The notes: generated by a model from the letters alone, not told the origin. A stretch of 64,000 nt of DNA from Clostridium sp. CAG:302 (GCA_000431795.1 FR887372.1:3087-67086); one strand, 5' to 3'; numbered from the stretch's first letter, positions 2,220-62,049 are shown. Numbers and translations: made by a program.

Positions 2220-2256
2220 TTAAGCATTTTCATATAATGCTATTATTTCTTTCTTA
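2220..2256. repeat. 37-bp direct repeat, copy A (identical to 3450-3486)
   Basis: ttaagcattttcatataatgctattatttctttctta occurs identically at 2220-2256 and 3450-3486, flanking the yhcG-like segment. Confidence 0.9.
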
Positions 2257-2430
2257 CTTAGATTTTTATCAAGAGATATCTACAAACTCACAATGAATAT
2301 TAAAACTAAAGTATAATATATGTAGTTATAGAAATAAACTCATTTTTTAAGTTACTACATTTCAATAAAATTAATGTTCATTTTCTAGACAGAATATCAG
2401 TGGCTTATAATAATCCATCCAATAATACCA

Positions 2431-3436
2431 TTAATGATTATCCAAATTAATATGCATATTTAAATCTTCTTCTGTAGGTAATTTATCAAGAATATTTTTG
2501 GGAATTATGTTTTTAACTTTAAAAGAAGACACACCGATTGGTACATTTGTAGATTTTAAAGACCAATCAACTGATAATCTATCTTTATCTTTACAAAGTA
2601 ATAATCCTATTGTTGGATTATCGTTTTTCGTTCTCAAAGTTTCATCAATAGCGGTTACATAAAAACCAAGTTGCCCAGTATATTCAGGTTTAAACTTATT
2701 TACCTTGAGTTCTACAACAATATAACATCTTAACTCCAAATGATAGAACAATAAATCTATATAATAATCATTTCCATCAACAGATATTTTATATTGATTT
2801 CCAACAAAACTGAAGCCTTTTCCTAATTCTAGTAATACATCCCTTATCTTATCTAGTAAAGCTTCTTCCAATTCCTTTTCTTTGTAATTTTGATGTAATG
2901 TTATAAAGTCAAATATATATGGATCTTTAAAAGTATTATTTACTAAGTCACTATCATTTGGTGGTAATAATGCACTAAAATTATTATTAGTACCTCCTAT
3001 TCTTTTATGAAAATGGCTTTCAATTTGAATAGAAAGTACACTACGACTCCAACCATTTTTGATAGTATTTTCAGCATATATTTTCCTCAAACTTTTATCT
3101 TTGATTTTTTCAATTAAAAGTATATTGTGCCCCCCAAGGCAATTTGGCAACAAGTTGTTGCCAACTCTCATCATCCTTGTATTCTTCATAAAACAATCGC
3201 ATCGCTCTAATATTTCTTTCCGAAAATCCCTTCATTGAAGGAAAAGTTAATTTAAGTTCAGTAGAAACCTGCTTAGTAAAATTATTCCCATAAACTTTAT
3301 TTTCTGATACGATTTTTCCCAACCTGAAATATAGTTTAATTAAATTACTATTAACTTCCTGTATTGTTTTTATTTGAGTACTTATAATTTCTTTCTTCAT
3401 ATTAGCAATAATCATTTTAAAATCTTTTTCTATCAT
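2431..3436 (-). pseudogene. yhcG: YhcG/DUF1016 PDDEXK-family nuclease-like gene, frameshifted at a G6 homopolymer
   Basis: Two overlapping ORFs, 3110-3463 (N-terminal YhcG_N-like, ...QQLVAKLPWG) and 2431-3189 (C-terminal DUF1016, KDPYIFDFI...IDLLFYH...VVELK...PEYTGQLGFYV), lie in different frames. Removing one G from the GGGGGG tract (top-strand cccccc at 3131-3136) restores a continuous ...AKLPWGHNILLIEK... protein. The RBS GAGGGGG precedes the ATG at 3436. Confidence 0.7.
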
Positions 3437-3449
3437 AACATCCCCCTCA

Positions 3450-3486
3450 TTAAGCATTTTCATATAATGCTATTATTTCTTTCTTA
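3450..3486. repeat. 37-bp direct repeat, copy B
   Basis: Identical to 2220-2256. It encodes the C-terminus (KKEIIALYENA*) of the 95-aa ORF and the ATGAAAATG start context. Confidence 0.9.
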
Positions 3487-3737
3487 TTTAAATTCTTTTC
3501 TAAAGACTTAATATCTTTTATAAATTCATCATGATCTTTAGTTATATCTTCAGTCTTAGTTAATATTACTTTTTCTATATCTGATACTCCATATCTAATT
3601 AAATATAGACAATTTAAATTAACATTTCTAGAGTTATTTACAAGTAATTCTAATAAGTAATTATTTTTACTATTAATTAACTTTTCATAACTAGCATAAG
3701 ATATAAACTTAAATAAATAGTTTAGTTTATCTTCCAA
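3450..3737 (-). CDS. Hypothetical 95-aa protein, first ORF after the T-box leader (TTG start)
   Basis: ORF with RBS GGAAGG 7 nt before a TTG start. It sits immediately downstream of the T-box terminator. No recognisable domain. Confidence 0.4.
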   Translation of the reverse strand: MEDKLNYLFKFISYASYEKLINSKNNYLLELLVNNSRNVNLNCLYLIRYGVSDIEKVILTKTEDITKDHDEFIKDIKSLEKNLNKKEIIALYENA

Positions 3738-3759
3738 TTTAATACCTTCCTTCTAAAAA

Positions 3760-3962
3760 AGAAAAAAGATGATACCATAAAAGGACGAATTAATATCCGC
3801 GGTACCACCTTTCTTTATAACATAAGTTATACTCTTAAATCTTTAACCTGATTAACGGTATAAAACTAAAGGGTGAATTCATACTAAATAATTAACTCTT
3901 CTTTCACCCTCTAAGAGCTCGCTAATAATTATTTTTATAGTATTACTACTTCCTCATCACTG
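3760..3962 (-). promoter_or_regulatory. T-box riboswitch leader (presumed Phe-responsive) with terminator
   Basis: Minus strand contains GAAAGGUGGUACCGCGG (top 3796-3812), matching the conserved T-box sequence AGGGUGGNACCGCG. Upstream is a Stem-I-like AGAGGGUGAA...UUCACCCU helix. Downstream is a hairpin plus UCUUUUUUCUUUUUU run. It lies upstream of the operon ending in pheS-pheT. Confidence 0.7.
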
Positions 3963-3967
3963 TCTTA

Positions 3968-4510
3968 TTATATAGTCATTAAATCTTTTTCTTTCTCTTT
4001 TAATTTTTCATCTACAATTTTATTATATTCATTAATTAAATCTTGTACTCTTTCATTACCTCTTTTTTCTTCATCCTCAGGTAATTCTAAGTTTTCTAAT
4101 GCTTTATTAGCATCTTGTCTAATATTTCTAAGAGCTATTTTTGCTTCTTCACCTAACCCTTTAACTTGTTTTACTAATTCTTTTCTTCTATCTTCAGTAA
4201 GTGGTGGTATTACTATAAATACTACTTCTCCATTGTTATTAGGAGTTACTCCTAAATTAGCTTCAAAGATAGCCTTTTCTATTGCTCCAAGACATGATCT
4301 ATCAAATGGTTTAATAGATAATTGCCTAGCCTCAGGTATAGATATATTTGCTAAACTTTTAAGTGGTGTTGGTACTCCATAATATTCTACCATAATACCA
4401 TCTAACATATTAGGATTAGCTCTACCTGCTCTAACATTAGTAAACTTGTTTTCTAAAGATTCAATTGTTAACATCATCTTTTCTTCTGTACTATTTAATA
4501 TTTCTTCCAT
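3968..4510 (-). CDS. frr: Ribosome recycling factor
   Basis: The 180-aa product carries the typical RRF sequence (MLDGIMVEYYGVPTPL...IPPLTEDRRKELVK). Confidence 0.9.
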   Translation of the reverse strand: MEEILNSTEEKMMLTIESLENKFTNVRAGRANPNMLDGIMVEYYGVPTPLKSLANISIPEARQLSIKPFDRSCLGAIEKAIFEANLGVTPNNNGEVVFIVIPPLTEDRRKELVKQVKGLGEEAKIALRNIRQDANKALENLELPEDEEKRGNERVQDLINEYNKIVDEKLKEKEKDLMTI

Positions 4511-4700
4511 ATAATCTCCTTTTTTACATTAAATAATATAACATACTTTTATAATTTATACAATATTTTTTATTATTTTTATATTCTTTTTATTTAGTTC
4601 AAGCCTTACTATGTAAGTCTTTCACTATTATATTAAGCCTAATCTTTAGTCTTAATATAATATATCTACATATCTATTATATATAAGCCATATCTATATA

Positions 4701-4731: not shown

Positions 4732-4771
4732 TCCAATATATTTTACAATAGATATTTACAAAATAAACTTT

Positions 4772-4830
4772 CACAATAGAGACCTTAGGCTCTATTGTGC
4801 CTCTTAAGACTTATCTTAAGACTTAAGAGG
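4772..4830. repeat. Double-hairpin palindromic repeat element, copy 1 of 5
   Basis: cacaatagag-accttagg-ctctattgtg followed by cctcttaag-N13-cttaagagg. The same architecture occurs at 27050-27102, 56891-56942, 59776-59829 and 61977-62030. Confidence 0.8.
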
Positions 4831-4841
4831 ATATATAATAA

Positions 4842-10683: not shown

Positions 10684-13600
10684 TTATATTTTTTCTAAAG
10701 TATTATTAGTAACTGAATATAGATATATATTTGTAGGTTTATTAAATCTATTCTCTATATAGTCTTTATAACCATTTAATTGTTTTAAATAAGCTTCATC
10801 ACTAATATTCTTTAATTTATAATCAATTATTTTAATATTATCTTTATATACTAACATTAAGTCTATAATACCATGATAAGTAGTATTATCTTCTTCATAT
10901 ATAAATTCATATTCTTTATATATATCTGTATTGTCTATATTAACTTTATCTAAGAAATTAGTTATTATCTCTCTATTCTTACCAGTTAAATTACTAGTAT
11001 TATGAAAGTCTGTTAATTCAAATAACTCATGGACTTTCTTACCATAATCAAGTCTATCCTGTTCTTCTTTTGAAGTAATATGAATATTCTTCTTAGAAAA
11101 AGATTTTTCTTCTTCTTTTTGAATATCTATATTAATATCTTGAACGTCTAGTTTATCCTCTACTCTACCTAGTAATTTATTATAATTATCATTCTTAACT
11201 AAGTTATAATTCTTAGATAAATCAATACTATTAATATCAATATTTTTATAATAACTCTTAGTAATAGATTCTAACGAATACATAATACTAGCAAAACTAT
11301 TATATTTTGATCTAATACTATCATCAATAATATCACTAATATACTCTGCTTCTTCTTTAGTATTCTCTGGTAATATAAATATCATTTTTTCTTTAGCTCT
11401 TGTTAGTGCAACATAGAAGAGTCTTATTCGTTCACTAATATTTTCTAATACATAGTTTCTATAACTTAAATTATGATAAATAGTATTATATAAGAATTTA
11501 TCTTTATAAGGAATAATAATACCATACTTATCGTCATAACTAAATTTACTTATAGCTTCCCTAATATTAAATTTACTATATAATCCCCCGTAGTAGCAGA
11601 CATTAAACTCTAGTCCTTTTGAAGCATGAATAGTCATAATTTTTACTGTATTATTACTACTTTCAGTAACATTATATTCTATCTTCATACCACTTTCTAT
11701 AATGTCCTCTAAATATTCACTATATTTATATATATCATAATCTAAATTAGTTAGATTACTAGTAATTTCTTTTAATTTATCTATTCTAATAATATTTGAA
11801 GAATAATCTCCAAGTAAAAATAATTTATTATAAAAATCATATTTATCAATAATTATATCAATTATTTCATCTAAACTAATTGTATCAAGATCCTTAGTAA
11901 TACCATAACTAATCTTATAAATATCGCTATCTTTAAAATTATTATTTAGAAAATAATCAAATATTATATTATCATCTAAATTAAAGAGAAAACTTCTAGC
12001 TATTGATATAAATAATTTTTTAAATTCATTATCTATAACATTATCTTTAATCTTTATAATAAAACCAATTATATTCTTTATTATAGTAATTACTTCACCA
12101 TCAGTTAGATTAACTGATTTCACAATACTCGTAGGAATATCATTATATTCTAAAATCTTTTTATATAGTTCAAATGACTTACTACTATCAAGTAAGATAG
12201 CAAAATCACTATATTTAGCCTTTCTAATACCTTTAGTATCTTTACCAAAGATTGGATAACCATTAATAATTTTATTTTTAATATCACTAGCTATTATAAA
12301 AGCTTCTACTTCGTCTTTTTTAAATATTGTATCATTAAGATAACTATATACTTCAAAGTTATTATTTACCCCGTTGTCACCATCACCTTGATACATAGGA
12401 TTACCATATACCATTCTATGACTTACTTTATATGAAGCTCCTCCAATAGTATCATCCATTATTCTATCAAACATTAAATTAATATTATTAATAACTTCTT
12501 CTCTACTTCTAAAGTTTTTATTTAGATCTATCTTAATACCATTAATATTCTTACTATATGAATCATATTTATTTTTAAATATATATGGATTAGCATTTCT
12601 AAATCTATATATAGATTGTTTAATATCTCCAACCATATAGACATTATTATTAGATATATATGCAATAAATTCTTCTTGAACATCATTAGTATCTTGATAT
12701 TCATCAATCATTATTTCATTTAAATTATTCTTAATTTCTTCTCTTATCTCAGTATTATTTTTTACAAGTTCTATTGCATAAGAAGATATATCACCATATT
12801 CAAAGTAATTATATTTACTTTTATATTCTGATACTCTTTTATCTAATTCTTTTATTATCGTTATTATTTCTTCTACATAATCTTTAGTCTTTAATATACC
12901 ACTCTTTATACTATCATAATTATCATATATAACTAATTTTTTTATTTCTTTAATAGTATTAGATATTTTATCTTTATATTCTTTAGTGGTATCTGATACT
13001 CCCTTAGCTATAGGAAGTTTAACTTCTAAATTAAGTTTAATATCATCGTAATCACCTGAAGATAACAAAGGACTAAGTACCTTATATATCTTATCAAAAT
13101 AATCACTATCATCTATATATTCTAAATAATCTCTAATATTATTAATTAAATTTAATATTACTTTGGTATAATTATCTATATCTTTATCAATATTTTCTTC
13201 ATTATATTTAATGCTTATATAACTATCTAAATATTCTCTCTTATTAGTCTTTAAATCTAATTTATTATTAATATTTAAAATAAAACTAAATATTTCTTTA
13301 TCATCTTTTAAAGCATATTCTTTAATTAGATTTAAAAACTTAGAGTCTTCACTAGTATATAACTCTTCAAAAATATCTTTAAGCATTTTCTCTTTATATA
13401 ACCCTATTACTGAAGCATCTATAATATTAATATCTTTAGATAGATTTAAATAGTAGTGGTATTTTTTAACTAGTGATAAAGCATAGGCATCAAATGTTGT
13501 TATATCAGCAGTATCTAGTTTAGATAGTTCTTTAGTAAAACCATTTTCTTTTAATTTTTCTCCTATTCTCTCACGCATCTCTTTAGCGGCCATTTTAGTA

Positions 13601-13764
13601 AATGTTAAAATAAGTAAATTATCTACTGAAATTCCTTTTTTTACTTTTTCTAATACTCTTTCAGTTAGAACAGCAGTTTTACCAGAACCAGCACCCGCAG
13701 ATACGATAATATTAGTGCCTTCTTTATATATAGCTTCTTTTTGTTCATCTGTCCATTTTGGCAT
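10684..13764 (-). CDS. addA: ATP-dependent helicase/nuclease subunit A (AddA/RexA)
   Basis: The 1026-aa product has a UvrD-like Walker A (AGAGSGKTAVLTERV), helicase motifs and a C-terminal RecB-type nuclease (GIIDLMLVYKD...IDYK). Confidence 0.85.
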   Translation of the reverse strand: MPKWTDEQKEAIYKEGTNIIVSAGAGSGKTAVLTERVLEKVKKGISVDNLLILTFTKMAAKEMRERIGEKLKENGFTKELSKLDTADITTFDAYALSLVKKYHYYLNLSKDINIIDASVIGLYKEKMLKDIFEELYTSEDSKFLNLIKEYALKDDKEIFSFILNINNKLDLKTNKREYLDSYISIKYNEENIDKDIDNYTKVILNLINNIRDYLEYIDDSDYFDKIYKVLSPLLSSGDYDDIKLNLEVKLPIAKGVSDTTKEYKDKISNTIKEIKKLVIYDNYDSIKSGILKTKDYVEEIITIIKELDKRVSEYKSKYNYFEYGDISSYAIELVKNNTEIREEIKNNLNEIMIDEYQDTNDVQEEFIAYISNNNVYMVGDIKQSIYRFRNANPYIFKNKYDSYSKNINGIKIDLNKNFRSREEVINNINLMFDRIMDDTIGGASYKVSHRMVYGNPMYQGDGDNGVNNNFEVYSYLNDTIFKKDEVEAFIIASDIKNKIINGYPIFGKDTKGIRKAKYSDFAILLDSSKSFELYKKILEYNDIPTSIVKSVNLTDGEVITIIKNIIGFIIKIKDNVIDNEFKKLFISIARSFLFNLDDNIIFDYFLNNNFKDSDIYKISYGITKDLDTISLDEIIDIIIDKYDFYNKLFLLGDYSSNIIRIDKLKEITSNLTNLDYDIYKYSEYLEDIIESGMKIEYNVTESSNNTVKIMTIHASKGLEFNVCYYGGLYSKFNIREAISKFSYDDKYGIIIPYKDKFLYNTIYHNLSYRNYVLENISERIRLFYVALTRAKEKMIFILPENTKEEAEYISDIIDDSIRSKYNSFASIMYSLESITKSYYKNIDINSIDLSKNYNLVKNDNYNKLLGRVEDKLDVQDINIDIQKEEEKSFSKKNIHITSKEEQDRLDYGKKVHELFELTDFHNTSNLTGKNREIITNFLDKVNIDNTDIYKEYEFIYEEDNTTYHGIIDLMLVYKDNIKIIDYKLKNISDEAYLKQLNGYKDYIENRFNKPTNIYLYSVTNNTLEKI

Positions 13765-14779: not shown

Positions 14780-15113
14780 GATCCTTCACCTTTATTAGAG
14801 TACTCTCATCTACATATAAAGTACCATCAGTATCTGAAATATTTCCTTTTAAGAAATATTTTTTTACTTTCCTATCAAGTTCTTCATCTTCTATACCATC
14901 TAAAAGATTATAAAACCACATAACATAATTTTTCATATTTTCATAACCATTATCTTTATCTCCTGGATAAAAATATTCATTATTTTCATCATCATATTGC
15001 ACTAGAGCATTTTCTTTATAAATAGTATCTTTACCATTTAAATGTCTTTCCATTATCGTACAGTAATATCTAGGCATATATAGAACAGGTTTAGTCCCCA
15101 TTATCTTCACCAT
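14760..15113 (-). CDS. Hypothetical protein (117 aa)
   Basis: ORF overlaps both the addB stop and the downstream gene start. Confidence 0.4.
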   Translation of the reverse strand: MVKIMGTKPVLYMPRYYCTIMERHLNGKDTIYKENALVQYDDENNEYFYPGDKDNGYENMKNYVMWFYNLLDGIEDEELDRKVKKYFLKGNISDTDGTLYVDESTLIKVKDHGISRK

Positions 15114-17373: not shown

Positions 17374-17447
17374 TATACCACCTAGATATATTATTGCATA
17401 AAACTAATAAAAAGTAAACCCTACCCTAGTTATTTTATTATGTTCAC

Positions 17448-17535: not shown

Positions 17536-17673
17536 TAATTTATATATTTAAATTCTTTTTAATTAGTAGTTTATTGTAAATATAATAAAAAGCGGATAGC
17601 CACTATGGAGACATACAATGTCTTACCATCTTACAGCATATCCGCTTTCTGTAGATAATATATTACAATCCAA

Positions 17674-21928: not shown

Positions 21929-21955
21929 AAAAACAGACTAAATTAGCCTGTTTAT
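21929..21955. repeat. 27-bp direct repeat / terminator hairpin, copy 1 (flanks the TA module)
   Basis: aaaaacagactaaattagcctgtttat is identical at 22648-22674. It forms a hairpin AACAGaCUAA/UUAGcCUGUU followed by U-rich sequence. Confidence 0.8.
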
Positions 21956-21967
21956 CATATATAATTC

Positions 21968-22258
21968 TTAAAATACTTCACTATGACTTCCAATATTTAC
22001 TAATAAGAGAATTAATTCGTTTTCGTTGTACTTGTATATTAGTAACCAATCAGGATCAATGTGGCACTCAAAGCAATCAATATAGTATTTATCATTAACA
22101 AGTTTATGATTTTTAAATTTTCGCTCCAATTTTTCCATATTTGCTAACTTGTCAACAATATCTAATAATTTATTAATATCTTTTCCTTGCTTTAATGATT
22201 TTTTTAATCCTTTTTTAAATTGGTTAGAATACTGAACATCATATTTATAGTTATTCAT
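21968..22258 (-). CDS. yafQ: Type II toxin, YafQ/RelE family mRNA interferase
   Basis: The 96-aa product carries ...CHIDPDWLLIYKY...NIGSHSEVF, matching E. coli YafQ motifs (HVEPDWILIYK...RTGTHAALF). Confidence 0.8.
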   Translation of the reverse strand: MNNYKYDVQYSNQFKKGLKKSLKQGKDINKLLDIVDKLANMEKLERKFKNHKLVNDKYYIDCFECHIDPDWLLIYKYNENELILLLVNIGSHSEVF

Positions 22259-22541
22259 TATCTGATAGTAATGCTTTCTTTAAATCTTCTCTATTAGTAT
22301 AACGCGGATAATCATTTGGACGTGATATCATTTCTTTTACTTCTTGAACTGCTTTTAACATTTCTTCATTCGGTTTATTGTTTACGATTTCAAATGGTAT
22401 GCCATCTCTTTTTATTACCTGTTTTAAAAATATGTTAATTGCAGTACTCATACTTAAGCCTAGGTTATTTAAAATATCTGTGGCTTGTTTTTTGGTATCA
22501 CTATCAACTTGAATATTTATAGCACTGGTTAAATTTGCCAT
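22251..22541 (-). CDS. dinJ: Type II antitoxin, DinJ/RelB family
   Basis: MANLTSAINIQVDSDTKKQATDILNNLGLSMSTAINIFLKQVIKRDGIPFEI reads as a RelB/DinJ ribbon-helix-helix. It overlaps the toxin start. The RBS GGGAGA precedes the ATG at 22541. Confidence 0.75.
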   Translation of the reverse strand: MANLTSAINIQVDSDTKKQATDILNNLGLSMSTAINIFLKQVIKRDGIPFEIVNNKPNEEMLKAVQEVKEMISRPNDYPRYTNREDLKKALLSDNE

Positions 22542-22647
22542 AGTATCATCTCCCAATATTAATTTTAGCACAATAAGTAGTAAAAGTCAATATACTTACT
22601 ACAATATTACTACATATATTGTATGTGCAAAGTGAATTTTTATACAC

Positions 22648-22674
22648 AAAAACAGACTAAATTAGCCTGTTTAT
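22648..22674. repeat. 27-bp direct repeat / terminator hairpin, copy 2
   Basis: Identical to 21929-21955. It sits at the 3' end of glmS. Confidence 0.8.
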
Positions 22675-24441
22675 TTATTCTACCGTTACAGATTTAGCAA
22701 GGTTTCTAGGTTTATCGATATCACAACCTTTTAATTTAGCTATATTATAAGCAAGTAATTGCATAGGTATTATTGCCATTAATGGATTTAAAACCTCATT
22801 ATAATCATCTAATAATATTTTATACTTAGAAAAATCATCATCTTTAATATTGGTAATAGTTACAATATTTGCTCCACGAGACTCTACTTCTTTTAGATTG
22901 CTAATAGTTTTTTCACTAATTTCTTTATCAGTAACTACTGCGATTACACCAAAGTCTTTATCTATCAAAGATATACTACCATGTTTTAATTCTCCTGCTT
23001 GAAAGGCTTCACTATGTATATAAGATATTTCTTTTAGTTTAAGACTACCTTCCATAGCCAAGTAATAATCTACTAATCTACCTAAATAGAAGATATTCGT
23101 TTTATTAACCATTATTTTAGATATTTCTTCATAATTATATTCATTAATATATTTAGTAAATATATTAGGAAGTAGTTTTAAACTATTAATAGTTTCTTCT
23201 TCAATACTACTACCTTTAATAGCTAAAAATAATAGTACTAATACTTGGGCTAGATATGCTTTAGTGGTAGCTACTGCTACTTCAATACCAGCCTCAGTAT
23301 ATATAACATATTTAGCTTCCCTTGCTATTGAAGATTCATGTCTATTTACTATAGCTAAAGTATCAATATTATTCTCTTTAGCTAATTTTAATGATGCTAA
23401 TGTATCAGCAGTCTCACCTGACTGTGATATAAGTATAACTAAAGTATCTTTATCAAAGAAATTAGTTTGATATCTATATTCTGATGCAAAGTATACATTA
23501 ACTCTAATATTAGCAAATTTTTCAATATAATATTTACCAAGTTGTCCTGCAAAAGAAGCACTACCACAAGCAACAATATCAATATTTTTATATTTCTTTA
23601 TATCAAAGATATCTTTTACTTTGTTATTTTCAGTATATAAATTAAGTAATTTCTTTACAAGTTCTGGTTCTTCATTAATTTCTTTTAACATAAAATGATC
23701 ATAGCCATTCTTACTAATAGTTTCCTTTTCTAAAGGAAATTCTTTTACTGTCTTTTGTATTTCTTTCCCTGCTCTATTATAATACTTAACGTTATCTTTA
23801 GTTAAATATACTACGTCGTAATTATCAAGTACTACATATTTATTAGTTATATGCACAATAGCGGGTATATCACTAGCAAGAACATTTTCATTCTCTCCAA
23901 TGCCTACGATTAAAGGACTATCTTTTCTAATACCAAAGATAATATCTTTATAATCATCATTTATAATATTAAAAGCATAACTACCTTTAAGAATATGAGT
24001 AATTTTATTTAATACTTTAATCATATCTTTCTCTTTATTATAGACATCATCTATAACAGCAGCAGCTACTTCAGTATCAGTACCAGACTTAAATACATAT
24101 CCTTTCTTTGTTAGTTCTTTTTTCAACTCATCATAATTTTCAATAATTCCATTATGTACTAATGTTATTTTACCCTGTCTATGAGGATGAGCATTTATAT
24201 CATTAGCCTCTCCATGAGTAGCCCATCTAGTATGAGATATACCAATATTAGTATCCTCATCATAATTTATATTTTCTTCAAGATTCTTAATAGGGCCTTC
24301 CTTTTTAATTATCTTGATTTCATCATCTTTTATATAAGCAATACCTGCCGAATCATAACCTCTATATTCTAAAGATTTTAAACCTGTAAGTATTTTATTT
24401 AACGCTTTTTTATTTCCTGCATAACCTACGATGCCACACAT
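22675..24441 (-). CDS. glmS: Glutamine--fructose-6-phosphate aminotransferase
   Basis: The 588-aa product starts MCGIVGY and has two SIS domains. Confidence 0.9.
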   Translation of the reverse strand: MCGIVGYAGNKKALNKILTGLKSLEYRGYDSAGIAYIKDDEIKIIKKEGPIKNLEENINYDEDTNIGISHTRWATHGEANDINAHPHRQGKITLVHNGIIENYDELKKELTKKGYVFKSGTDTEVAAAVIDDVYNKEKDMIKVLNKITHILKGSYAFNIINDDYKDIIFGIRKDSPLIVGIGENENVLASDIPAIVHITNKYVVLDNYDVVYLTKDNVKYYNRAGKEIQKTVKEFPLEKETISKNGYDHFMLKEINEEPELVKKLLNLYTENNKVKDIFDIKKYKNIDIVACGSASFAGQLGKYYIEKFANIRVNVYFASEYRYQTNFFDKDTLVILISQSGETADTLASLKLAKENNIDTLAIVNRHESSIAREAKYVIYTEAGIEVAVATTKAYLAQVLVLLFLAIKGSSIEEETINSLKLLPNIFTKYINEYNYEEISKIMVNKTNIFYLGRLVDYYLAMEGSLKLKEISYIHSEAFQAGELKHGSISLIDKDFGVIAVVTDKEISEKTISNLKEVESRGANIVTITNIKDDDFSKYKILLDDYNEVLNPLMAIIPMQLLAYNIAKLKGCDIDKPRNLAKSVTVE

Positions 24442-24464
24442 AATTTTTAACCTCCTCTTATATA

Positions 24465-24600
24465 TGATTATTATCTTGTTACAATTTTGATTTTGTTTTT
24501 TTATAATAATCTAATGAGCATATACACCCAATGTAGTATCCGCCGAAAACTCGATAACTACATACCTCGTTAACTATTTCTAGTCTGGCGCTAATTTATA
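24465..24600 (-). ncRNA. glmS ribozyme (GlcN6P-responsive self-cleaving leader)
   Basis: Minus strand reads AGCGCCAGACUAGAAAUAGUUAACGAGGUAUGUAGUUAUCGAGUUUUCGGCGGAUACUACAUUGGG, matching the glmS ribozyme core (AGCGCCAGAACU...GACGAGGAUGG.GGUUAUCGAAUUUUCGGCGGAUGCC). It is followed by RBS AAGAGGAGG and the glmS ATG. Confidence 0.85.
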
Positions 24601-24691
24601 TTTTCTTCTCCCTTCTATAATATAAACTTTATTACATTATATCAGAATATTAAAAACGTGTAAACATCTGTAGTTACAATTAACTATTGGT

Positions 24692-43493: not shown

Positions 43494-44378
43494 TTATCTT
43501 TTAGCTCTTGGATGAGCCATTTCATATACTTTTCTTATTTGTTCATTAGTAACATGAGTATATATACTCGTCGTATTAAGTGATTCATGTCCTAATAATT
43601 CTTTAACAGTCATTAAGTCAGATCCATCCTCTAACATATCAGTAGCAAAAGTATGTCTAAAAGTATGTGGACTTATCTTAATATCTAGTCCAGCCTTAGT
43701 AACTAACTTATTAATAATATTTCTAATATATCGTTCAGATAATTTATTACCATCTTTATTAAGAATTAAATAGCCACTACTAAGTTTATTAAATTCATGA
43801 TAACCATCATTTAAATATATCTCTATAGCTTTCTTAGTATGATTATTAAATATAACCATTCTCTCTTTACTACCTTTACCAAGTACTTTAATAGTTCTCT
43901 CATTAATATCAATATCAGATATTTTAATATTAACTAGTTCACTAACTCTAATACCAGTAGCATATAATAGTTCTATAATAACACTATTTCTCTGATTAAT
44001 TGGAGTATCATACTTACATACTTCAAATATTTTATTAGCTTCTTCATCCTTTAAAAACTTAGGTAAATACTCATCTTTCTTAGGATTATTAATTCTATTA
44101 AAATAATTATCTTTAACCATATCTTCTCTTACTAAGTAATTATATAACCCTCTTATACTACTTAACTTTCTAGATATAGAGTTTTTACTAATATTAAGTG
44201 AATATAAGTATTTCATATATTCTTTAACAGTATCATAATCTATATCTAAAATATTAATAAAACTATTACCTAAAAATTCATTATATAAAGTTAAATCATC
44301 ATAATAAGATTCTATTGTCTTATCACTATATTTCTTTACTACTTTTAAATATTCTAAGTATTTATTAATATACTTCAT
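43494..44378 (-). CDS. Tyrosine recombinase XerC/XerD family
   Basis: The 294-aa product has a C-terminal RHTFATDMLEDGSDLMTVKELLGHESLNTTSIYTHV (R..H..Y catalytic signature). Confidence 0.8.
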   Translation of the reverse strand: MKYINKYLEYLKVVKKYSDKTIESYYDDLTLYNEFLGNSFINILDIDYDTVKEYMKYLYSLNISKNSISRKLSSIRGLYNYLVREDMVKDNYFNRINNPKKDEYLPKFLKDEEANKIFEVCKYDTPINQRNSVIIELLYATGIRVSELVNIKISDIDINERTIKVLGKGSKERMVIFNNHTKKAIEIYLNDGYHEFNKLSSGYLILNKDGNKLSERYIRNIINKLVTKAGLDIKISPHTFRHTFATDMLEDGSDLMTVKELLGHESLNTTSIYTHVTNEQIRKVYEMAHPRAKR

Positions 44379-50308: not shown

Positions 50309-51037
50309 TTAGTCAATTATTTTAAGATAAATATTTACATATTTATCACTATACTTTTTGCTTTTCAATAATTCTAAATTATTATATTTATCTTTTAATT
50401 TATCAAAACTATACTCTAATAATAAGATTCCATTATCTAAAAGTAAATCATACTTAGTAACTAGTTCTATTACTTCTTCCATTACTTCCATTTTATAAGG
50501 AGCATCTACTAGTACAATATTAAACTTAATATTATTATTTTTAAAATATAATAAACTATCTCTATAATCTTTACTAACTATAATACTCTTACTATTAATA
50601 CCAAGATTATTAATATTCTTATTTAAATATCTCAATATATCTTTATTATTATCTACAAAATAACATCTACTAGCACCCATAGATAAAGCTTCTATACCAA
50701 GACTACCAGTACCACAAAATAAATCTAATATGATAGAATCATCAATATAATTTTGAATACTAGTAAACATAGATTCCTTTACTCTATTCATCGTGGGTCT
50801 AGTACCTATTATATTATAAGCCAAATAATTCTTTTCCTTATATTCAGAATATTTATATATTTTTTCTTTTAAAGATATTTTTTCATAATCATCTTTACTA
50901 GTATTATATTTATTAATTAATTCTAATAATTCACTATTATTTATAACTATTTCTTTATAATAATCTAATTTTCTAATTAAATTGCTATTTTCAAAAGAAT
51001 CTATTAACTTCTTTGTTTTATCTATAATATTATTCAT
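50309..51037 (-). CDS. rsmD: YlbF-like::RsmD fusion ORF (duplicate copy 1; 16S rRNA m2G966 methyltransferase domain)
   Basis: N-terminus MNNIIDKTKKLIDSFENS... is a paralog of 52321-52617. The C-terminus (LDLFCGTGSLGIEALSMGA...VLVDAPY) is about 95% identical to 51767-52333. A deletion of about 90 nt relative to copy 2 fuses the frames. Confidence 0.6.
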   Translation of the reverse strand: MNNIIDKTKKLIDSFENSNLIRKLDYYKEIVINNSELLELINKYNTSKDDYEKISLKEKIYKYSEYKEKNYLAYNIIGTRPTMNRVKESMFTSIQNYIDDSIILDLFCGTGSLGIEALSMGASRCYFVDNNKDILRYLNKNINNLGINSKSIIVSKDYRDSLLYFKNNNIKFNIVLVDAPYKMEVMEEVIELVTKYDLLLDNGILLLEYSFDKLKDKYNNLELLKSKKYSDKYVNIYLKIID

Positions 51038-51250
51038 TATCTATATTTAAAATCCTTTTCAAGTTCTCTTTTTATATCTCTTTCTTTAATAAATTCTTTT
51101 TTATCATAATTCTTTTTACCTTTACATACTCCTATTTCTACTTTACATCTTCCTTTTACAAAATAGAATCTAAGTGATATTAGTGTATATCCTTCTATTT
51201 CTAATTTGTTTTTTAGTTTTAATATTTCTTTTTTATGAAGTAAATATATT
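51038..51250 (-). pseudogene. Truncated smpB 3' fragment (duplicate remnant)
   Basis: The reverse complement encodes ...EFIKERDIKRELEKDFKY, matching the C-terminus of smpB at 52617-53054. Nucleotide similarity to 52618-52830 ends near 51250. Confidence 0.65.
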
Positions 51251-51305
51251 TTATCATTTTGATGTTAGAACAGATATCATTTAGACAAAGTTTTTTACAC
51301 TCTCC

Positions 51306-51336
51306 TCTATTTAAAAAAATGAACTATTTTTTAGTT
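51306..51336. terminator. Bidirectional terminator hairpin
   Basis: AAATGAACTA-ttttt-TAGTTCATTT, flanked by A-run and T-run. Confidence 0.6.
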
Positions 51337-51339
51337 CAT

Positions 51340-51684
51340 TTATCTTTTCATTGGTTTTGATTCTTCTACATTTATATTTGATTGTATTTCAAATGATTGT
51401 ATTAAAGCATTAAAATATTGTTCTTTAGAATAACCTTTCGGACATTCGACTTTGCCTGATATGATATCTTCATAAATTTTTCTTTTAAATTTTTCTTTTT
51501 CTTCAGGGATACTCATGTATTGCATTTTCATTTTATATAATTCTTCTAATCTAATTAATATTTTTTCTTCTTCGGAATTTAGCTCTTTATAAGATGGGAT
51601 ATCTTTTGTAATCATTGGAATAACTTGATCAAAAGGATTTTTTTCTAATTTTTTTTGTACTTCATCATATGATTTTTTATTCAT
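51340..51684 (-). CDS. Hypothetical protein (114 aa) located between the duplicated segments
   Basis: ORF with no recognisable motif. Confidence 0.45.
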   Translation of the reverse strand: MNKKSYDEVQKKLEKNPFDQVIPMITKDIPSYKELNSEEEKILIRLEELYKMKMQYMSIPEEKEKFKRKIYEDIISGKVECPKGYSKEQYFNALIQSFEIQSNINVEESKPMKR

Positions 51685-51766
51685 ATTTTCCCTCCTTTAT
51701 TGAATTATACTATATTTTTATTAATTTGACAATTACTATAACTATTCAAAAGTTGCACTTGACTTT

Positions 51767-52333
51767 TTAATTAATAATTATTTTAAGATAAATATTTACA
51801 TATTTATCACCATACTTTTTACTTTTAATTAATTCTAAATTATTATATTTATCTTTTAACTTATCAAAACTATACTCTAATAATAAAATTCCTTTATCTA
51901 AAAGTAAATCATACTTAGTAACTAGTTCTATTACTTCTTCCATTACTTCCATTTTATAAGGAGCATCTACTAGTACAATATTAAACTTAATATTATTATT
52001 TTTAAAATATAATAAACTATCTCTATAATCTTTACTAATTATCGTACTCTTACTATTAATATCAAGATTATTAATATTCTTATTTAAATATCTTAATATA
52101 TCTTTATTATTATCTACAAAATAACATCTACTGGCACCCATAGATAAAGCTTCTATACCAAGACTACCAGTACCACAAAATAAATCTAATATGATAGAAT
52201 CATCAATATAATTTTGAATACTAGCAAACATAGATTCCTTTACTCTACTCATCGTAGGCCTAGTAGTTTCTACATTATATCCAAGCAATTCTCTTCCTTT
52301 TAAATAACCACTTATTACTCTCATATATGACAA
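51767..52333 (-). CDS. rsmD: 16S rRNA (guanine966-N2)-methyltransferase RsmD
   Basis: MRVISGYLKGREL...TRPTMSRVKESMF...LDLFCGTGSLGIEA...VLVDAPY. Confidence 0.85.
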   Translation of the reverse strand: MSYMRVISGYLKGRELLGYNVETTRPTMSRVKESMFASIQNYIDDSIILDLFCGTGSLGIEALSMGASRCYFVDNNKDILRYLNKNINNLDINSKSTIISKDYRDSLLYFKNNNIKFNIVLVDAPYKMEVMEEVIELVTKYDLLLDKGILLLEYSFDKLKDKYNNLELIKSKKYGDKYVNIYLKIIIN

Positions 52334-52617
52334 CCTCTTACATTTGTATATTCTTTAAATCTTTTATTAATACCCATAATATAATAAAATAGTTCATTAT
52401 AATACTTCATATATTCTCTATATTCATCATATTTATATATCTTTTCTTTTAAAGATAACTTCTCATAATTATCAGTACTATTATTATATCTTTTTATTAA
52501 ATCTAATAATTCTTTATTACCAATAACTATTCTTTTATAATAATCTAATTTACTAATTAATTCACTACTCTCAAAAGAATCTATTAACTTCTTAGTTTTA
52601 TCTATAACATTATCCAT
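52321..52617 (-). CDS. YlbF/YmcA-family (DUF964)-like small protein
   Basis: The 98-aa product (IDKTKKLIDSFESSELISKLDYYKRIV...) lies next to rsmD, as B. subtilis ylbF lies near ylbH(rsmD). Confidence 0.5.
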   Translation of the reverse strand: MDNVIDKTKKLIDSFESSELISKLDYYKRIVIGNKELLDLIKRYNNSTDNYEKLSLKEKIYKYDEYREYMKYYNELFYYIMGINKRFKEYTNVRGCHI

Positions 52618-53054
52618 TATCTATATTTAAAGTCCTTTTCTAATTCTCTTTGAATATCTCTTTCTTTAATAGATTCTTTTTTATCATAATTCTTTTTACC
52701 CTTACATACTCCTATTTCTACCTTACATCTACCTTTTACAAAGTAAAATCTAAGAGGTATTAAAGTATAACCCTCTATTTCTAGTTTATTTTTTAACTTT
52801 AATATTTCTCTTTTATGAAGTAATAACTTTCTAGTTCTATCTTCTTCATGATTAAATCTATTACCTTCTTCATAAATAGAAATATGTGTATTAAGTAAAT
52901 ATATTTCATCATTTCTAATAATAGCATAACTATCTTTAATATTAACCTTACCTTGTCTTACAGACTTAATCTCAGTACCAGTAAGTACTATACCCGCTTC
53001 ATAAGTATCCTCAATTACATAGTCATATCTTGCTTTTCTATTTAATATCTCCAT
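52617..53054 (-). CDS. smpB: SsrA-binding protein
   Basis: The 145-aa product reads NRKARYDYVIEDTYEAGIVLTGTEIKS... Confidence 0.9.
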   Translation of the reverse strand: MEILNRKARYDYVIEDTYEAGIVLTGTEIKSVRQGKVNIKDSYAIIRNDEIYLLNTHISIYEEGNRFNHEEDRTRKLLLHKREILKLKNKLEIEGYTLIPLRFYFVKGRCKVEIGVCKGKKNYDKKESIKERDIQRELEKDFKYR

Positions 53055-56787: not shown

Positions 56788-56890
56788 AGTTCCTCCTTAC
56801 TAAATAATACTAACTAGTAATAACCTATAGAAGATGTTTTCATAGACAAAAAAAGACTTTAATTTTTTATATTCTATAATATAAATGTTT

Positions 56891-56942
56891 AACAATGAAG
56901 ACCTTAGGATTCATTGTTCCTCTTAAGACTACAAACTTAAGA
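56891..56942. repeat. Double-hairpin repeat element, copy 3
   Basis: aacaatgaa-gaccttagg-attcattgtt followed by cctcttaag-actacaaa-cttaagag. Confidence 0.8.
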
Positions 56943-56993
56943 GATAAAAAAAGATAACCAATTATTATAAATATTTATAATAGTTATCCATTT

Positions 56994-59239: not shown

Positions 59240-59743
59240 TTACTTATCTTTTCTTTTTATTCCTTTTAATAGAGTTCCAGTAATACCATTTTCTATAACA
59301 CCTTTTACTGTACCTCTAGTATCAAATCCAAGTACATCATCTACTTTATCAAAAGCATTTTTAACCTTTTTTACGCCACGATCAGACATAGTTGTACCTG
59401 TTACAGCATCAGTAACTTTAGTAACAAATTTTACTGCTTCAATAGCATTATCAAACTTAATAGTAAAGTTATTTTTAATAGTTTGTATGTATACTTCACT
59501 ATTCTTTTGATGAACTTGTACCTTATTATTATATAACTTAATATCACTAATATTTACTATATTAATTACTTTTTTATTTTCTTCTTTCTTTAAAAGACTT
59601 ACTTTTTTAATTTCTACCTTTTCAATTATTATCTTTTTTGAAGTAAGTGTTAATAATAATTTATCTTCTACATCATTATAATATACTTCTGTAGTTAATA
59701 ATATTACTTCATCTTCCGCTAGTTCATAATTTTCCATATTCAT
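59240..59743 (-). CDS. Hypothetical protein, possible bacterial PH-like domain
   Basis: The 167-aa product starts MNMENYELAEDEVILLTTEVYY... Its promoter/RBS/first 5 codons are duplicated upstream of the ATPase gene. Confidence 0.45.
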   Translation of the reverse strand: MNMENYELAEDEVILLTTEVYYNDVEDKLLLTLTSKKIIIEKVEIKKVSLLKKEENKKVINIVNISDIKLYNNKVQVHQKNSEVYIQTIKNNFTIKFDNAIEAVKFVTKVTDAVTGTTMSDRGVKKVKNAFDKVDDVLGFDTRGTVKGVIENGITGTLLKGIKRKDK

Positions 59744-59847
59744 TCCTCCACATATATTATATCACATAAATACTTCATAACATAGACCTTAGGCTATGTT
59801 ATGCCTCTTAAGACTACAGGCTTAAGAGGACATATACAAAAAGCAAT
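59733..59847. repeat. About 115-bp direct repeat, left copy (contains double-hairpin element copy 4, an extended -10 promoter and RBS/ATG)
   Basis: About 93% identical to 61933-62049. Confidence 0.85.
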
Positions 59848-59868
59848 AAATTTATAAAATATTATCAC

Positions 59869-60822
59869 CTAAAATTTATTCTTAAAATCATTCATAAATT
59901 TCTTATATTTATTAAATTCATTATCCTTATTATTTATTTGAAGAACATATAATATTTTTCCATATAGTATATTTATATATTTTTCTTTTTCTATATCTAT
60001 ATTTCTTTTCTTTAAGTGAGATTCCAAACCAAATTTTCTTATATAATATATTTCCTGTCTTATTTCTTTACGATATTTTGCACTAACCTGTACTTTTTCA
60101 TTAACTACTATTCCAGTTACATTTTGATTAGATGATTTATGTATTATATGTATTTTTTTATTATTTAATTCTAATCCTAACTTATATAACATTTTTCTTA
60201 CTTTAACTATAACTTCTCTTGGATTAAATTCTCCTGAAAATGTCATATCATCTGAATATCTTGTATACGATATATTATTTTCTTCACACCATAACCCTAA
60301 TACTTCATCAAACTCTTTCATTACTAAATTTGAAATATATGCAGATGTAGGAGCACCTTGCATTAGATAATCATCATAAGTACATAAATAAGTTAATATC
60401 ATCCCTACTGATTTAGGAAAATATTCTATTGAAAAACAAGAATTGTATACATCTATAAAAGATATATTTTCAAAAAAATCTTTAATATCTAATTTTAAAA
60501 TTAATTCTTTATTTAAATGTGGAATAGCATTATCTTTCAAATTAATACCCTTATGGTATGCTTTTGCATATTTAGATATTGCTTTATTATCAAGAATTTT
60601 TACTAATATTTGCCTTTGAATATGCTTTAAAAGTGAATTTGGTTCATATATCGTTCTATATTTCCCATTTTTCTTTTTTATTTTATATATTTTATAATTG
60701 TTTTCTATATTATTACTAATAGAATAAATGGTATTCAAATATTTCTTTTTATCTTTACAATTAAACAATTTGAGAGATAGTAAAAATTCATTACATTCTT
60801 CTTTACCTATGTATTTCCACAT
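59869..60822 (-). CDS. Retron-type reverse transcriptase
   Basis: RT motifs 1-7: KKKNGKYRTIYEPNSLLKHIQ, LDIKDFFENI, LMQGAPTSAYISNLVM, YTRYSDDMTFSG (cf. Ec86 YTRYADDLTLS), and the retron-specific NQNVTGIVVN (VTG motif). Likely start MWKYIGKEE, with RBS GGGAGG 8 nt upstream. The 5' 69 nt of the track ORF belong to the upstream ncRNA region. Confidence 0.85.
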   Translation of the reverse strand: MWKYIGKEECNEFLLSLKLFNCKDKKKYLNTIYSISNNIENNYKIYKIKKKNGKYRTIYEPNSLLKHIQRQILVKILDNKAISKYAKAYHKGINLKDNAIPHLNKELILKLDIKDFFENISFIDVYNSCFSIEYFPKSVGMILTYLCTYDDYLMQGAPTSAYISNLVMKEFDEVLGLWCEENNISYTRYSDDMTFSGEFNPREVIVKVRKMLYKLGLELNNKKIHIIHKSSNQNVTGIVVNEKVQVSAKYRKEIRQEIYYIRKFGLESHLKKRNIDIEKEKYINILYGKILYVLQINNKDNEFNKYKKFMNDFKNKF

Positions 60823-61012
60823 CTTTACTACCTCCCAACTATTGCAGTGCTCATGATATTGTAATATGGAGATGAACTCAAAGCGTAGCATAGCGAAGCG
60901 ACTACATGAAATGTAGGTAAGTTCATTGAAGTATTACTATTAAATCATCTTAAATAAATTAGTCCCTTAACGACTCGTTAAAGTAGGAAATAATTCCAAT
61001 CACCACTGCCGA
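60823..61012 (-). ncRNA. Candidate retron msr-msd non-coding RNA
   Basis: A locally GC-enriched, highly structured 190 nt sits between an extended -10 promoter and the RT RBS. a1/a2 inverted repeats are GGCAGUGGUGAU (61011-60999) and AUCAUGAGCACUGC (60857-60844). msr-like hairpins are GGAAuuauUUCC and UUAACGaguCGUUAA. A long msd-like stem AUGAACU...AGUUCAU encloses CUACAUuucAUGUAG. Confidence 0.65.
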
Positions 61013-61016
61013 GAAT

Positions 61017-61027
61017 ATTATATCACA
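61017..61027 (-). promoter_or_regulatory. Extended -10 promoter (TGTGATATAAT) for msr-msd/RT
   Basis: Minus-strand TGtGATATAAT lies immediately after the ATPase stop codon. Confidence 0.55.
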
Positions 61028-61033
61028 ATAATT

Positions 61034-61900
61034 TTATTTTTTATCAAATTCTTCTTCATATTGTTTAAAAAAATTATAGTATACTAATACATTAGATAGT
61101 TCTGTCCATTTTTTTGTTACAACAGGTGTATCATCTAAATCATAAATCTTAGCGTCCATTAGTTTTAATAAAAATGGTGAATGTGTTGATATTATAAATT
61201 GACAATTATAAAATCTAGTAGAGTCTTCAATAAACCTTTTTAACTTCAATTGATTTTCCGCAGATAAACTATTTTCTGGTTCATCTAATATATAAATACT
61301 ATCTTCTTTTATCTCTCTTTCCCAAAACATAAGTGCAGATTCACCATTTGACCATTCAATTATATTATTATTACCTAATCTTTCTCTAACAAATTTAGAC
61401 ATTGATTTTCTTTTACTATCATAACTCATTTTTAATTCATCATAATTATCAAAAGAGTTACCATTATTATTAAATTTATAATCTAAATATTCTTTACTTA
61501 ATCTTTCCTTTTGTCTATTAACATTTGCATTAATAGAACGAACATCTATTAAATAATCAAAAACATCATCACTTGTAATTAATTTTATTTCCATTGGTTG
61601 TTCAAAAGACATTTCATAATCACAATGTTCAACATATAAATCAAAATATGAACCTTTATCTATTGGCGACTTCCTTGATGCATTTAATTTTTGTGAAATC
61701 ATATTTATAAGAGTTGTTTTACCAGAACCATTACCACCATAAAATATTGTTATTTTATCAAAATTTATCTCTTTAAATGATTTCGATGAAAATAAATGAA
61801 GTGGATAATTATTATTAAATATGTTTCTTCTCTCTTCATTAAATTCAATATTATGTTCTTGGATTTCATCTAATAATGTAAATTTTTTTAAATAAACCAT
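61034..61900 (-). CDS. ABC/OLD-like AAA ATPase (Walker A GGNGSGKTT, Walker B ILDEPE, H-loop STHSP); candidate retron effector/accessory protein
   Basis: The 288-aa product has the complete minimal ABC-type ATPase motif set. It sits immediately upstream of the msr-msd promoter, with its own TGGTATAAT promoter and RBS AGGAGGTG. Confidence 0.7.
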   Translation of the reverse strand: MVYLKKFTLLDEIQEHNIEFNEERRNIFNNNYPLHLFSSKSFKEINFDKITIFYGGNGSGKTTLINMISQKLNASRKSPIDKGSYFDLYVEHCDYEMSFEQPMEIKLITSDDVFDYLIDVRSINANVNRQKERLSKEYLDYKFNNNGNSFDNYDELKMSYDSKRKSMSKFVRERLGNNNIIEWSNGESALMFWEREIKEDSIYILDEPENSLSAENQLKLKRFIEDSTRFYNCQFIISTHSPFLLKLMDAKIYDLDDTPVVTKKWTELSNVLVYYNFFKQYEEEFDKK

Positions 61901-61932
61901 TTTTCACACCTCCTGATAAATTAAATTTATTC

Positions 61933-62049
61933 TCCATATTCATTTCCTGCACATATATTATACCACATAAATACTTCATAACATAGACCTTAGGCTATGG
62001 TATGCCTCTTAAAACTACAGGCTTAAGAGGATATATACAAAAAGCGATA
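61933..62049. repeat. About 115-bp direct repeat, right copy (contains double-hairpin element copy 5 at 61977-62030)
   Basis: It pairs with 59733-59847. It retains a vestigial MNMEN start codon context, now out of frame with the ATPase gene. Confidence 0.85.

Follow-up and report, generated by a model that had tools for sequence, protein, structure and literature searches.

Short direct repeats of neighbouring gene edges bracket four accessory units in a 64-kb window of Clostridium sp. CAG:302 and suggest cassette turnover by homologous recombination

In a 64,000-nucleotide stretch of the genome of Clostridium sp. CAG:302 (GCA_000431795.1, FR887372.1:3087-67086), hereafter called the window, four small accessory units are each bracketed by two copies of the edge sequence of the neighbouring native gene. 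The units are a yhcG-type nuclease gene, a dinJ-yafQ toxin-antitoxin (TA) pair, an Ec107-like retron with an AAA ATPase, and open reading frame (ORF) 114. Comparison with relatives points, without proof, to ordinary homologous recombination as the means by which these cassettes are moved and deleted. We hold with moderate confidence that the repeats are substrates and products of general homologous recombination and not footprints of a dedicated insertion enzyme, and that the cassettes spread and are deleted through the repeats or through the flanking core genes. The window is AT-rich (G+C about 25%) and carries nearly all of its genes on the minus strand; "left" and "right" below are given in the sense of transcription, in which window coordinates decrease. 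Its PheS is 97-98% identical to PheS of "Bacilli/Tenericutes" metagenome-assembled genomes (MAGs) from the uncultured human gut flora, and the exact protein was found only on three metagenome contigs. The comparison set consisted of related metagenome contigs and loci, designated by L-numbers, of which 1.88 Mb were fetched in total.

All four units share one geometry, in which a native copy is followed by the insert and then by a second copy that abuts the downstream gene (Table 1). The repeats are 27, 37, about 116-170 and about 1000 bp long, are unrelated in sequence, and each end at a gene boundary; at the yhcG, TA and retron sites each repeat stops exactly at the insertion point. When the window was simulated 100 times with a third-order Markov model, the longest exact direct repeat within 6 kb had a mean length of 17 nt and a maximum of 23 nt. 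In the 64-kb window itself, every exact direct repeat of at least 25 nt within 6 kb falls in one of the four units, three of which (yhcG, TA and ORF114) are polymorphic for presence or absence, with exact empty sites. A first-pass annotation, made from the sequence alone, had described repeat pairs around yhcG, dinJ-yafQ and the retron as duplicated local sequence bracketing accessory cassettes. All three pairs lie where it had placed them, and the single-copy empty sites of yhcG and the TA pair (and of ORF114) bear this description out. All three of its modules are real, but it missed the ORF114 unit (50.3-52.8 kb) and a third copy of the retron repeat.

The yhcG cassette interrupts an operon composed of a T-box leader, ORF95 and pheS. 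ORF95, for which family searches in Pfam and NCBIfam gave no match, lies directly upstream of pheS in most relatives compared (L004-L010, L012 and L014-L016), down to a PheS identity of 75-80%, and is itself 36-98% identical across relatives. In five of them (L004-L007 and L009) the site is empty: the repeat sequence is present once, and the ribosome-binding site (RBS) of pheS directly follows the ORF95 stop codon. The window carries instead a cassette of 1193 bp that starts right after this stop codon and at whose end the final 37 nt of ORF95 occur again. What had been annotated as the start context of pheS is in fact the close of the conserved 95-residue gene upstream of it, comprising its last 12 codons and the stop. 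Similarity between the start regions of yhcG and pheS was considered as a part of the repeat and rejected, because the YhcG N-terminus is native to its family (L176), and repeat 1 thus ends at the ORF95 stop codon. The mechanically called starts of pheS (2233) and yhcG (3463) both fall inside the 37-bp repeat, RBS-preceded starts being found at 2209 and 3436; the gene callers used for public contigs choose the same upstream starts.

The exact 37-bp repeat (2220-2256 and 3450-3486) sits within an 82-nt stretch of 80% identity. The core is identical at 37 of 37 positions, and the ORF95-like fragment adjoining its right copy (..HCEFVDISLDKNLS..) differs from the native sequence (..HDEFIKDIKSLEKNLN..) by about 30% mismatch and a two-codon deletion. 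In the flanks of yhcG, cassette-less strains diverge from the window by no more than 2-5%, which shows that the second copy is no fresh duplicate of the recipient sequence, as a simple duplication at the target would have made it. It came instead from a more distant lineage, together with the cassette, and the stretch of 37 identical nt most likely marks a crossover or conversion tract. Duplication in place followed by drift was rejected on the same contrast (about 30% vs 2-5% divergence) and because a perfect run of 37 nt would be improbable (0.8^37, about 3e-4). The predicted donor would carry an ORF95-like gene ending in ..SLDKNLSKKEIIALYENA*, followed directly by TGRGGGGGATG-yhcG. The cassette is 99.2-99.7% identical among seven contigs.

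The yhcG gene encodes the domains DUF1016_N and YhcG_C (Pfam), belongs to the PADLOC candidate defence family PDC-S02, and is split in the window into ORFs 3463->3110 and 3189->2431. The frameshift lies at about 3130-3135, where the window has G6 and intact alleles (L172 and L173) have G5; the extra G also occurs in L001, and it could reflect real inactivation, phase variation or a homopolymer error. Intact alleles encode 341 residues (P0121-P0126). Contigs of 1252-1360 bp with matching ends were considered as a circular yhcG element and rejected: their 23-30-nt overlaps are the 37-bp repeat cut at the assembler k-mer, and L173, in which an intact allele has normal chromosomal flanks, argues that the short contigs are assembly breaks and not circles. 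Flanking repeats as a general property of yhcG genes were likewise rejected, since homologues of 79-80% identity, which follow tRNA genes in L176 and adjoin an integrase in L178, have no repeats around them.

At the TA site, the 27-bp repeat is the hairpin of the glmS intrinsic terminator, as the first-pass annotation had proposed. A metagenome scan with GlmS gave 79 loci. Four alleles (L104, L106, L109 and L110) are empty, with one ATAAACAGGCTAATTTAGTCTGTTTTT copy between glmS and thyA; occupied alleles carry the 692-bp cassette exactly after the T-run, and then a second terminator copy. The pair is a type II DinJ-YafQ system by its domains (RelB, 2e-17; YafQ_toxin, 4e-27; Pfam) and by the 8-nt overlap of dinJ/relB with yafQ; it has a promoter-like site of its own (TTGACT-17-TAAAAT) and is without its own terminator. 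The TA proteins are 99-100% identical although the adjoining glmS genes are 91-100% identical. In most occupied alleles the left and right copies of the repeat differ by one loop base, which is linked to a distinct glmS 3' end, and the window and L096 show recombinant combinations of flanks around a single TA insertion point. A mosaic glmS was found in two samples (L154:1-2638 and L155:2158-4218), where identity to the window is about 55% over the first ~1500 nt and 95-100% in the final ~380 nt, after which comes the TA cassette. To judge from these sequences, either a crossover within glmS may have brought the DNA into a distant organism, or the same chimeric assembly may have arisen more than once. 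At the end of one of these contigs (L154:2606-2638), the end of yafQ, the terminator repeat and the first 6 nt of the cassette form a 33-nt terminal repeat with a period of 719 nt. A circular or tandem TA cassette would give a junction of this type, in which cassette end, repeat and cassette start follow one another (...GAATTATATATG-ATAAACAGGCTAATTTAGTCTGTTTTT-GTGTATAAAA). The ends of the cassette (21956-22000 and 22600-22647) match as an imperfect inverted repeat, which is weak (29 of 40 positions; p ~ 0.007 by shuffling, uncorrected) and overlaps the 3' end of yafQ and an operator-like region.

The fourth unit (50315-52823) is a block of about 1 kb, containing a ylbF-like gene and rsmD, duplicated around a 532-bp insert with ORF114 (114 residues; no match in Pfam or NCBIfam). 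Two relatives, L087 and L089, have a single copy of the block and no ORF114, which makes them exact empty sites. The geometry is as at yhcG, with a native copy, the insert, and a diverged copy that merges into native downstream sequence.

The retron unit is assigned from a retron-clade reverse transcriptase (RT), an adjoining putative non-coding RNA (ncRNA) with a1/a2 pairing, and an upstream AAA ATPase gene. The 211-nt spacer between the ATPase and RT genes has a retron-like fold architecture, with an energy z-score that is not significant; Rfam gave no match for the retron ncRNA or for the double hairpin of the repeat. In the gene calls of relatives the RT starts at about 60822 (317 residues). 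The core of repeat 3 spans 106 nt at 94% identity (59743-59848 and 61944-62049), the aligned extent being about 116-120 nt. The retron is present in 8 of 8 related contigs that cover the site (ORF165 identity 92-99%), and the differences between the repeat copies are kept across these relatives, indicating that the duplication is older than they are. Homologues of ORF165 start with M(N/E)NYEL, so that the ORF165-side end of repeat 3 is native to that gene.

A third copy of repeat 3 lies between recG and fic in near-identical strains (L084:3466-3640 and L086:3460-3635), about 4.3 kb past the window end. The sequence common to this copy and the retron-proximal copy A is about 170 nt long and takes in the recG terminator stem as well as 12 nt of the fic coding region; a more distant relative (L183) has recG and then fic without the element. 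Copy A was therefore copied from the recG-fic junction and not from the insertion point. The annotation had called the repeat a REP-like element with a promoter, of about 115 bp; its hairpins, promoter and length (about 116 bp) stand, but copy A carries fic codons from 4.3 kb away and is no simple duplicate of the local sequence. The locus order is recG / element-fic...ORF176 / element-retron / element-ORF165, and the copies before fic, the retron ATPase and ORF165 are identical at about 93-95% over about 116 nt, well within the definition of putative mobile promoters (at least 80% identity over at least 50 nt upstream of non-homologous genes). Hairpin-loop variants are exchanged among the three copies in different strains, indicating gene conversion. 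A search for an empty retron site among distant homologues of ORF165 (L180 and L181) and RecG (L182 and L183) gave no clean one; these have another gene order. The block from fic to ORF176 is likewise bracketed by copies of the promoter-hairpin element.

The double hairpin of repeat 3 (59760-59830 and 61960-62030) belongs to a dispersed family (Table 1) that is always intergenic and in gene orientation. Its first stem is conserved (CCTCTTAAG/CTTAAGAGG); its second stem covaries, with five pairs changed on both sides, around a conserved loop, CCTAAGGTC.

Homologous recombination at the repeats and in flanking core genes explains why the empty sites are exact and the second copies diverged, why cassettes are better conserved than the sequence beside them, and why flanks are reshuffled and repeat copies show gene conversion. 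We infer a route by recombination, in which a circle may take part. A cassette would move carrying one copy of its boundary sequence, either as linear DNA of a related strain that crosses over in the repeat or in a flanking core gene, or as a circle formed by repeat-repeat recombination, which would re-integrate by a single (Campbell-type) crossover at the resident copy. The reverse reaction would delete the cassette exactly and leave one repeat copy. Selection would retain only insertions at gene ends, terminators and 5' leaders, where the boundary duplication would supply cassette and host gene with a stop codon or RBS context, a terminator or a promoter. The repeats would look like hairpins or regulatory elements because only such insertions survive, and their hairpins are better explained by where harmless insertions survive than by hairpin targeting. 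Two features expected of Campbell-type integration were found. The insert lies between copies of a sequence that is single in the empty site for yhcG, the TA pair and ORF114; the incoming copy, which may differ from the resident one, does so at yhcG and ORF114, and the TA repeats are one loop base apart in most strains. The two shortest repeats, of 27 and 37 bp, are near the minimal length for RecA-dependent recombination known from Escherichia coli, and an AddAB-type recombination enzyme is encoded in the window. The circle- or tandem-type junction of L154 and the lack of transposase, integrase and terminal inverted repeats also speak for this reading.

Several points weigh against this reading. 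Recombination over 27-37 bp has a low efficiency in the bacteria for which measurements exist. Neither a circle nor an excision product was observed directly, as the circular-looking yhcG contigs of 1252 bp are assembly breaks at the 37-bp repeat; the sole hint of a circular intermediate is the junction in L154, which comes from one contig with 2x coverage. The mosaic glmS might be an assembly chimera that recurred, and yhcG homologues at other loci are without flanking repeats. No empty retron site was found, the retron being in all eight related contigs that cover it, and the history of its repeat, with copy A derived from the recG-fic copy, takes several steps. Nor does the model explain how a cassette first came to adjoin a host boundary copy; candidates for the first duplication are a Campbell-type crossover, template switching, and capture of a promoter or terminator by tandem duplication (PMC11111574).

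The last two candidates can also be taken as an explanation of their own. A broken or stalled replication fork would switch template into foreign DNA and then back to a point upstream of the break (microhomology-mediated), or a tandem duplication would capture a promoter or terminator for a newly arrived gene. Either event would leave an insert between local duplications of arbitrary length, and homologous recombination would then spread it between strains. This origin is possible, though we think it unlikely. It fits the arbitrary repeat lengths, the exact ending of each repeat at the insertion point, the promoter, terminator or RBS context that each duplication gives its cassette, and the derivation of retron copy A from a segment 4.3 kb upstream. 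Transferred genes are documented to become active when a spontaneous tandem duplication captures a promoter for them (PMC11111574), and highly similar promoter regions before unrelated genes are widespread (PMC3575422). However, it predicts initially identical copies, so that the diverged second copies need an extra transfer step, and no junction microhomology is evident. It also covers the origin of the repeats only and is compatible with their spread by homologous recombination.

Alternatively, the units may have no common route at all but separate histories: an old partial duplication of rsmD, propagation of the retron promoter, and chance-like duplications at the TA and yhcG sites, the pattern arising from looking at accessory genes. 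The first-pass annotation had itself allowed that such duplications might prove common around core genes, as tandem-duplication noise, and this is partly so among the 1.88 Mb of related loci. In L044 (261-1313), duplication of a Rho_N-like tail has produced a 31-bp pair on either side of rpsB, and a 27-bp terminator-like pair flanks truA, a helicase gene and a 145-residue ORF beside pheS (L036:3008-7832); a 33-bp pair flanks a GNAT acetyltransferase gene (L015:4982-5870). The signature is thus recurrent in the clade and not confined to accessory genes. Separate histories would also suit a retron repeat that belongs to a three-copy promoter family and yhcG homologues that lack repeats elsewhere. 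We nevertheless regard them as improbable, given that the four units account for all exact direct repeats of at least 25 nt within 6 kb in the window, have identical geometry, and in three of four cases are polymorphic with exact empty sites.

A stronger form of the recombination model is a recombinase-free cassette shuttle, in which small defence or addiction modules of these gut bacteria would excise as circles through repeats of 27-170 bp and re-integrate at a resident or paralogous copy, for example at any of the three promoter-hairpin elements. We consider it quite unlikely; if true, integron-like arrays such as recG / element-fic island / element-retron / element-ORF165 would be built by host recombination functions alone.

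Very unlikely, finally, is the idea of the first-pass annotation that cassettes enter as circles at native hairpins, with duplication of the target, through a trans-acting system that recognises hairpins (like that of integron attC sites, IS200/IS605 or Xer). In its favour are the strong hairpins in repeats 2 and 3 (DNA fold z = -6.5 and -5.0), the dispersed double-hairpin family with its covarying stems, the circle-type junction in L154 and the report that retron Ec107, of the same RT clade, replaced an intergenic palindrome of 34 bp in a place without mobility genes (PMC6868368). Against it, the repeats are unrelated sequences of 27 bp to 1 kb, the repeat 1 hairpin is weak (z = -2.3; a 6-bp stem), the fourth repeat consists of coding sequence over about 1 kb, the second copies have diverged and are not fresh duplicates, each cassette was seen at one site only, the crossover points share no sequence or structure motif, and the window holds no integron integrase or Y1 transposase, its only tyrosine recombinase being Xer-like and 20 kb away. 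Of the common route of acquisition that the annotation proposed, recombination through the repeats fits best, whereas hairpin targeting and simple target duplication are not supported.

Searches for mobility genes and for other classes of element agree with the annotation's view that insertion sequence (IS) or integrase events are less likely. Pfam scans covered all ORFs of the four units and their surroundings, and no transposase or integrase appeared in or beside any unit; an integrase does adjoin a yhcG homologue in L178, but without repeats. The first 60 nt and the reverse complement of the last 60 nt matched within the shuffle range for three units, the TA pair being marginal (p ~ 0.007 before correction), so that no convincing terminal inverted repeats were found. 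The repeats lack the fixed short length of IS or transposon target duplications. There is no IntI in the window, and the three flanking repeats first described share no common sequence or structure as integron sites would. Nor do these three unrelated sequences share one 28-bp dif-like consensus, as expected of Xer-dependent elements (IMEX and pdif), and only the 27-bp terminator among them has a palindromic-arm layout. No recombinase lies in or beside any unit, as the attL/attR arrangement of an integrase island would require. Carriage by a phage or plasmid was rejected, since phage and plasmid collections and IMG/VR pattern scans gave no close match. The only tyrosine recombinase of the window is, as annotated, the distant Xer-like gene at 43.5 kb, which looks like a housekeeping gene unlinked to any cassette.

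Table 1. Coordinates of the four units, their boundary repeats and related features in the window
Feature	Position	Strand	Basis and remarks
pheS	1175..2233	-	Pfam; real start probably 2209, after GGAGG (sequence read directly)
Repeat 1, right copy	2220..2300	-	exact 37-mer at 2220-2256; degenerate ORF95-like fragment at 2257-~2300, upstream in gene direction
yhcG-type PD-(D/E)XK nuclease gene	2431..3463	-	Pfam; PADLOC; frameshifted; true start probably ATG 3436
Repeat 1, left copy	3450..3486	-	native 3' end of ORF95 (last 12 codons and TAA); exact 37-mer; same as empty-site sequence in L004-L006
ORF95, small conserved gene between T-box leader and pheS	3450..3737	-	native, outside cassette
T-box leader of ORF95-pheST operon	3778..3969	-	Rfam RF00230, 95 bits
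Repeat 2, right copy, terminator copy after yafQ	21929..21955	-	exact 27-mer
TA cassette, 692 bp	21956..22647	-	dinJ/relB 22571->22251, yafQ 22258->21968; Pfam, sequence
Repeat 2, left copy, glmS intrinsic terminator	22648..22674	-	exact 27-mer; fold; one-base loop variant in most other strains
glmS with glmS ribozyme leader (24457-24603)	22675..24603	-	Pfam; Rfam RF00234
Xer-like tyrosine recombinase	43494..44378	-	Pfam Phage_integrase and SAM_1; neighbours thymidine kinase and VanY-domain peptidase (D-Ala-D-Ala carboxypeptidase family)
ORF114 unit, repeat copy 2, fused 242-residue ORF	50315..51243	-	diverged from copy 1: 83-92% in 5' part, 96-98% in 3' part
ORF114 unit, unique insert, 532 bp, with ORF114 (51684->51340)	51244..51775	-	absent from L087 and L089
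ORF114 unit, repeat copy 1, native ylbF-like 98-residue gene and rsmD	51776..52823	-	~100% identical to single-copy alleles L087 and L089; Pfam
Dispersed double-hairpin element, diverged relative of repeat 3	56858..56963	-	further copies at ~27050-27100 and ~4770-4830
Repeat 3, copy B, before ORF165	59729..59848	-	native leader and start of ORF165
Retron RT, Ec107-like clade	59869..60891	-	PADLOC RT_Ec107-like 1.7e-130; Pfam RVT_1; NCBIfam retron RT models
Putative retron ncRNA (msr-msd)	60823..61033	-	fold: a1/a2-type terminal pairing, long internal stem
Retron-associated AAA ATPase, PtuA/AriA-like	61034..61900	-	Pfam, PADLOC, NCBIfam
Repeat 3, copy A, before retron ATPase	61930..62049	-	T-run, double hairpin, extended -10 (TGnTATAAT), RBS, ATGAATATGGAGAAT, then 12 nt of fic coding sequence

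Some further features of the region were recorded. A second dispersed intergenic repeat occurs at 4657-4688, 17503-17534 and 19426-19460 (exact 32-mer ATAATATATCTACATATCTATTATATATAAGC and relatives), each time beside short hairpins. The UvrD-type (AddA-like) helicase gene at 10684-13764 is next to the PD-(D/E)XK (AddB-like) gene at 15091-17373, within and after which G+C drops to 15-19% (16000-18000). Downstream of recG, a conserved stretch of about 75 nt (..GTCATAGAGATATGACCACACGCTACGAA..CCAAAACCCCCTGAA; L084:3390-3465, L182:3520-3590 and L183:8815-8885) is followed by a terminator whose stem differs between lineages, and looks like a small RNA gene. The direct-repeat motif AGGTAACA-N4-5-GGTAACA, which may be an operator, was found downstream of ORF176 (62120-62175) and several times near recG in L182 (3640-3670 and 5690-5720).

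Defence systems and TA pairs often lie between core genes without mobile-element genes nearby, and their route of arrival is poorly documented. This locus offers four examples, with population variants and, for three units, exact empty sites, in which very short duplicated boundaries (a terminator, a stop/RBS context or a promoter leader) mark points of gain and loss and a cassette can be far more conserved than its own flanks. If recombination on short repeats suffices for movement, many "immobile" defence islets would actually be mobile, and repeat-flanked segments could be used to find strain-variable genes in MAGs.

Among known systems, transposon target-site duplications resemble these repeats in that direct repeats of the target flank the insert, but they measure 2-14 bp, with one fixed length for each element, and are accompanied by a transposase and terminal inverted repeats; nothing of this kind was found here. 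Integron cassettes and the Xer-dependent pdif modules of Acinetobacter plasmids use one conserved type of site and a dedicated or Xer recombinase. They too are small units of one or two genes, often TA or defence genes, that are bounded by hairpin-forming repeats and thought to move as circles; the present units, in contrast, each have a different repeat taken from local host sequence, in a window without an integron integrase. The near-identical ~116-170 nt upstream of the unrelated fic, retron ATPase and ORF165 genes resemble putative mobile promoters, whose way of moving is unknown in the literature too (PMC3575422, PMC11111574), except that the copies here also delimit cassettes and reach into the first codons of the downstream genes. 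Retron-Eco5 (Ec107), of the same RT clade, is likewise a stand-alone retron beside an intergenic hairpin element with no mobility genes, but there a 34-bp palindrome was replaced (PMC6868368), whereas the hairpin-promoter element has been retained here and duplicated, to a total of three copies, and the retron has an upstream AAA ATPase. Closest in kind are Campbell-type (insertion-duplication) integration and hotspot gene turnover by homologous recombination in flanking core genes (PMC5635113). In both, an insert lies between direct repeats of a homologous segment and can be lost exactly by repeat-repeat recombination, no dedicated recombinase takes part, and cassettes are exchanged between lineages at a fixed core-gene site. 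The homology here, unlike theirs, is very short (27-120 bp in three units) and lies at gene boundaries and not in whole flanking genes, and the circle is hypothetical. The retron, the TA pair and yhcG are thus of known kinds, and their architecture of short boundary repeats, with its population evidence, represents a modestly new form of recombination-driven cassette turnover.

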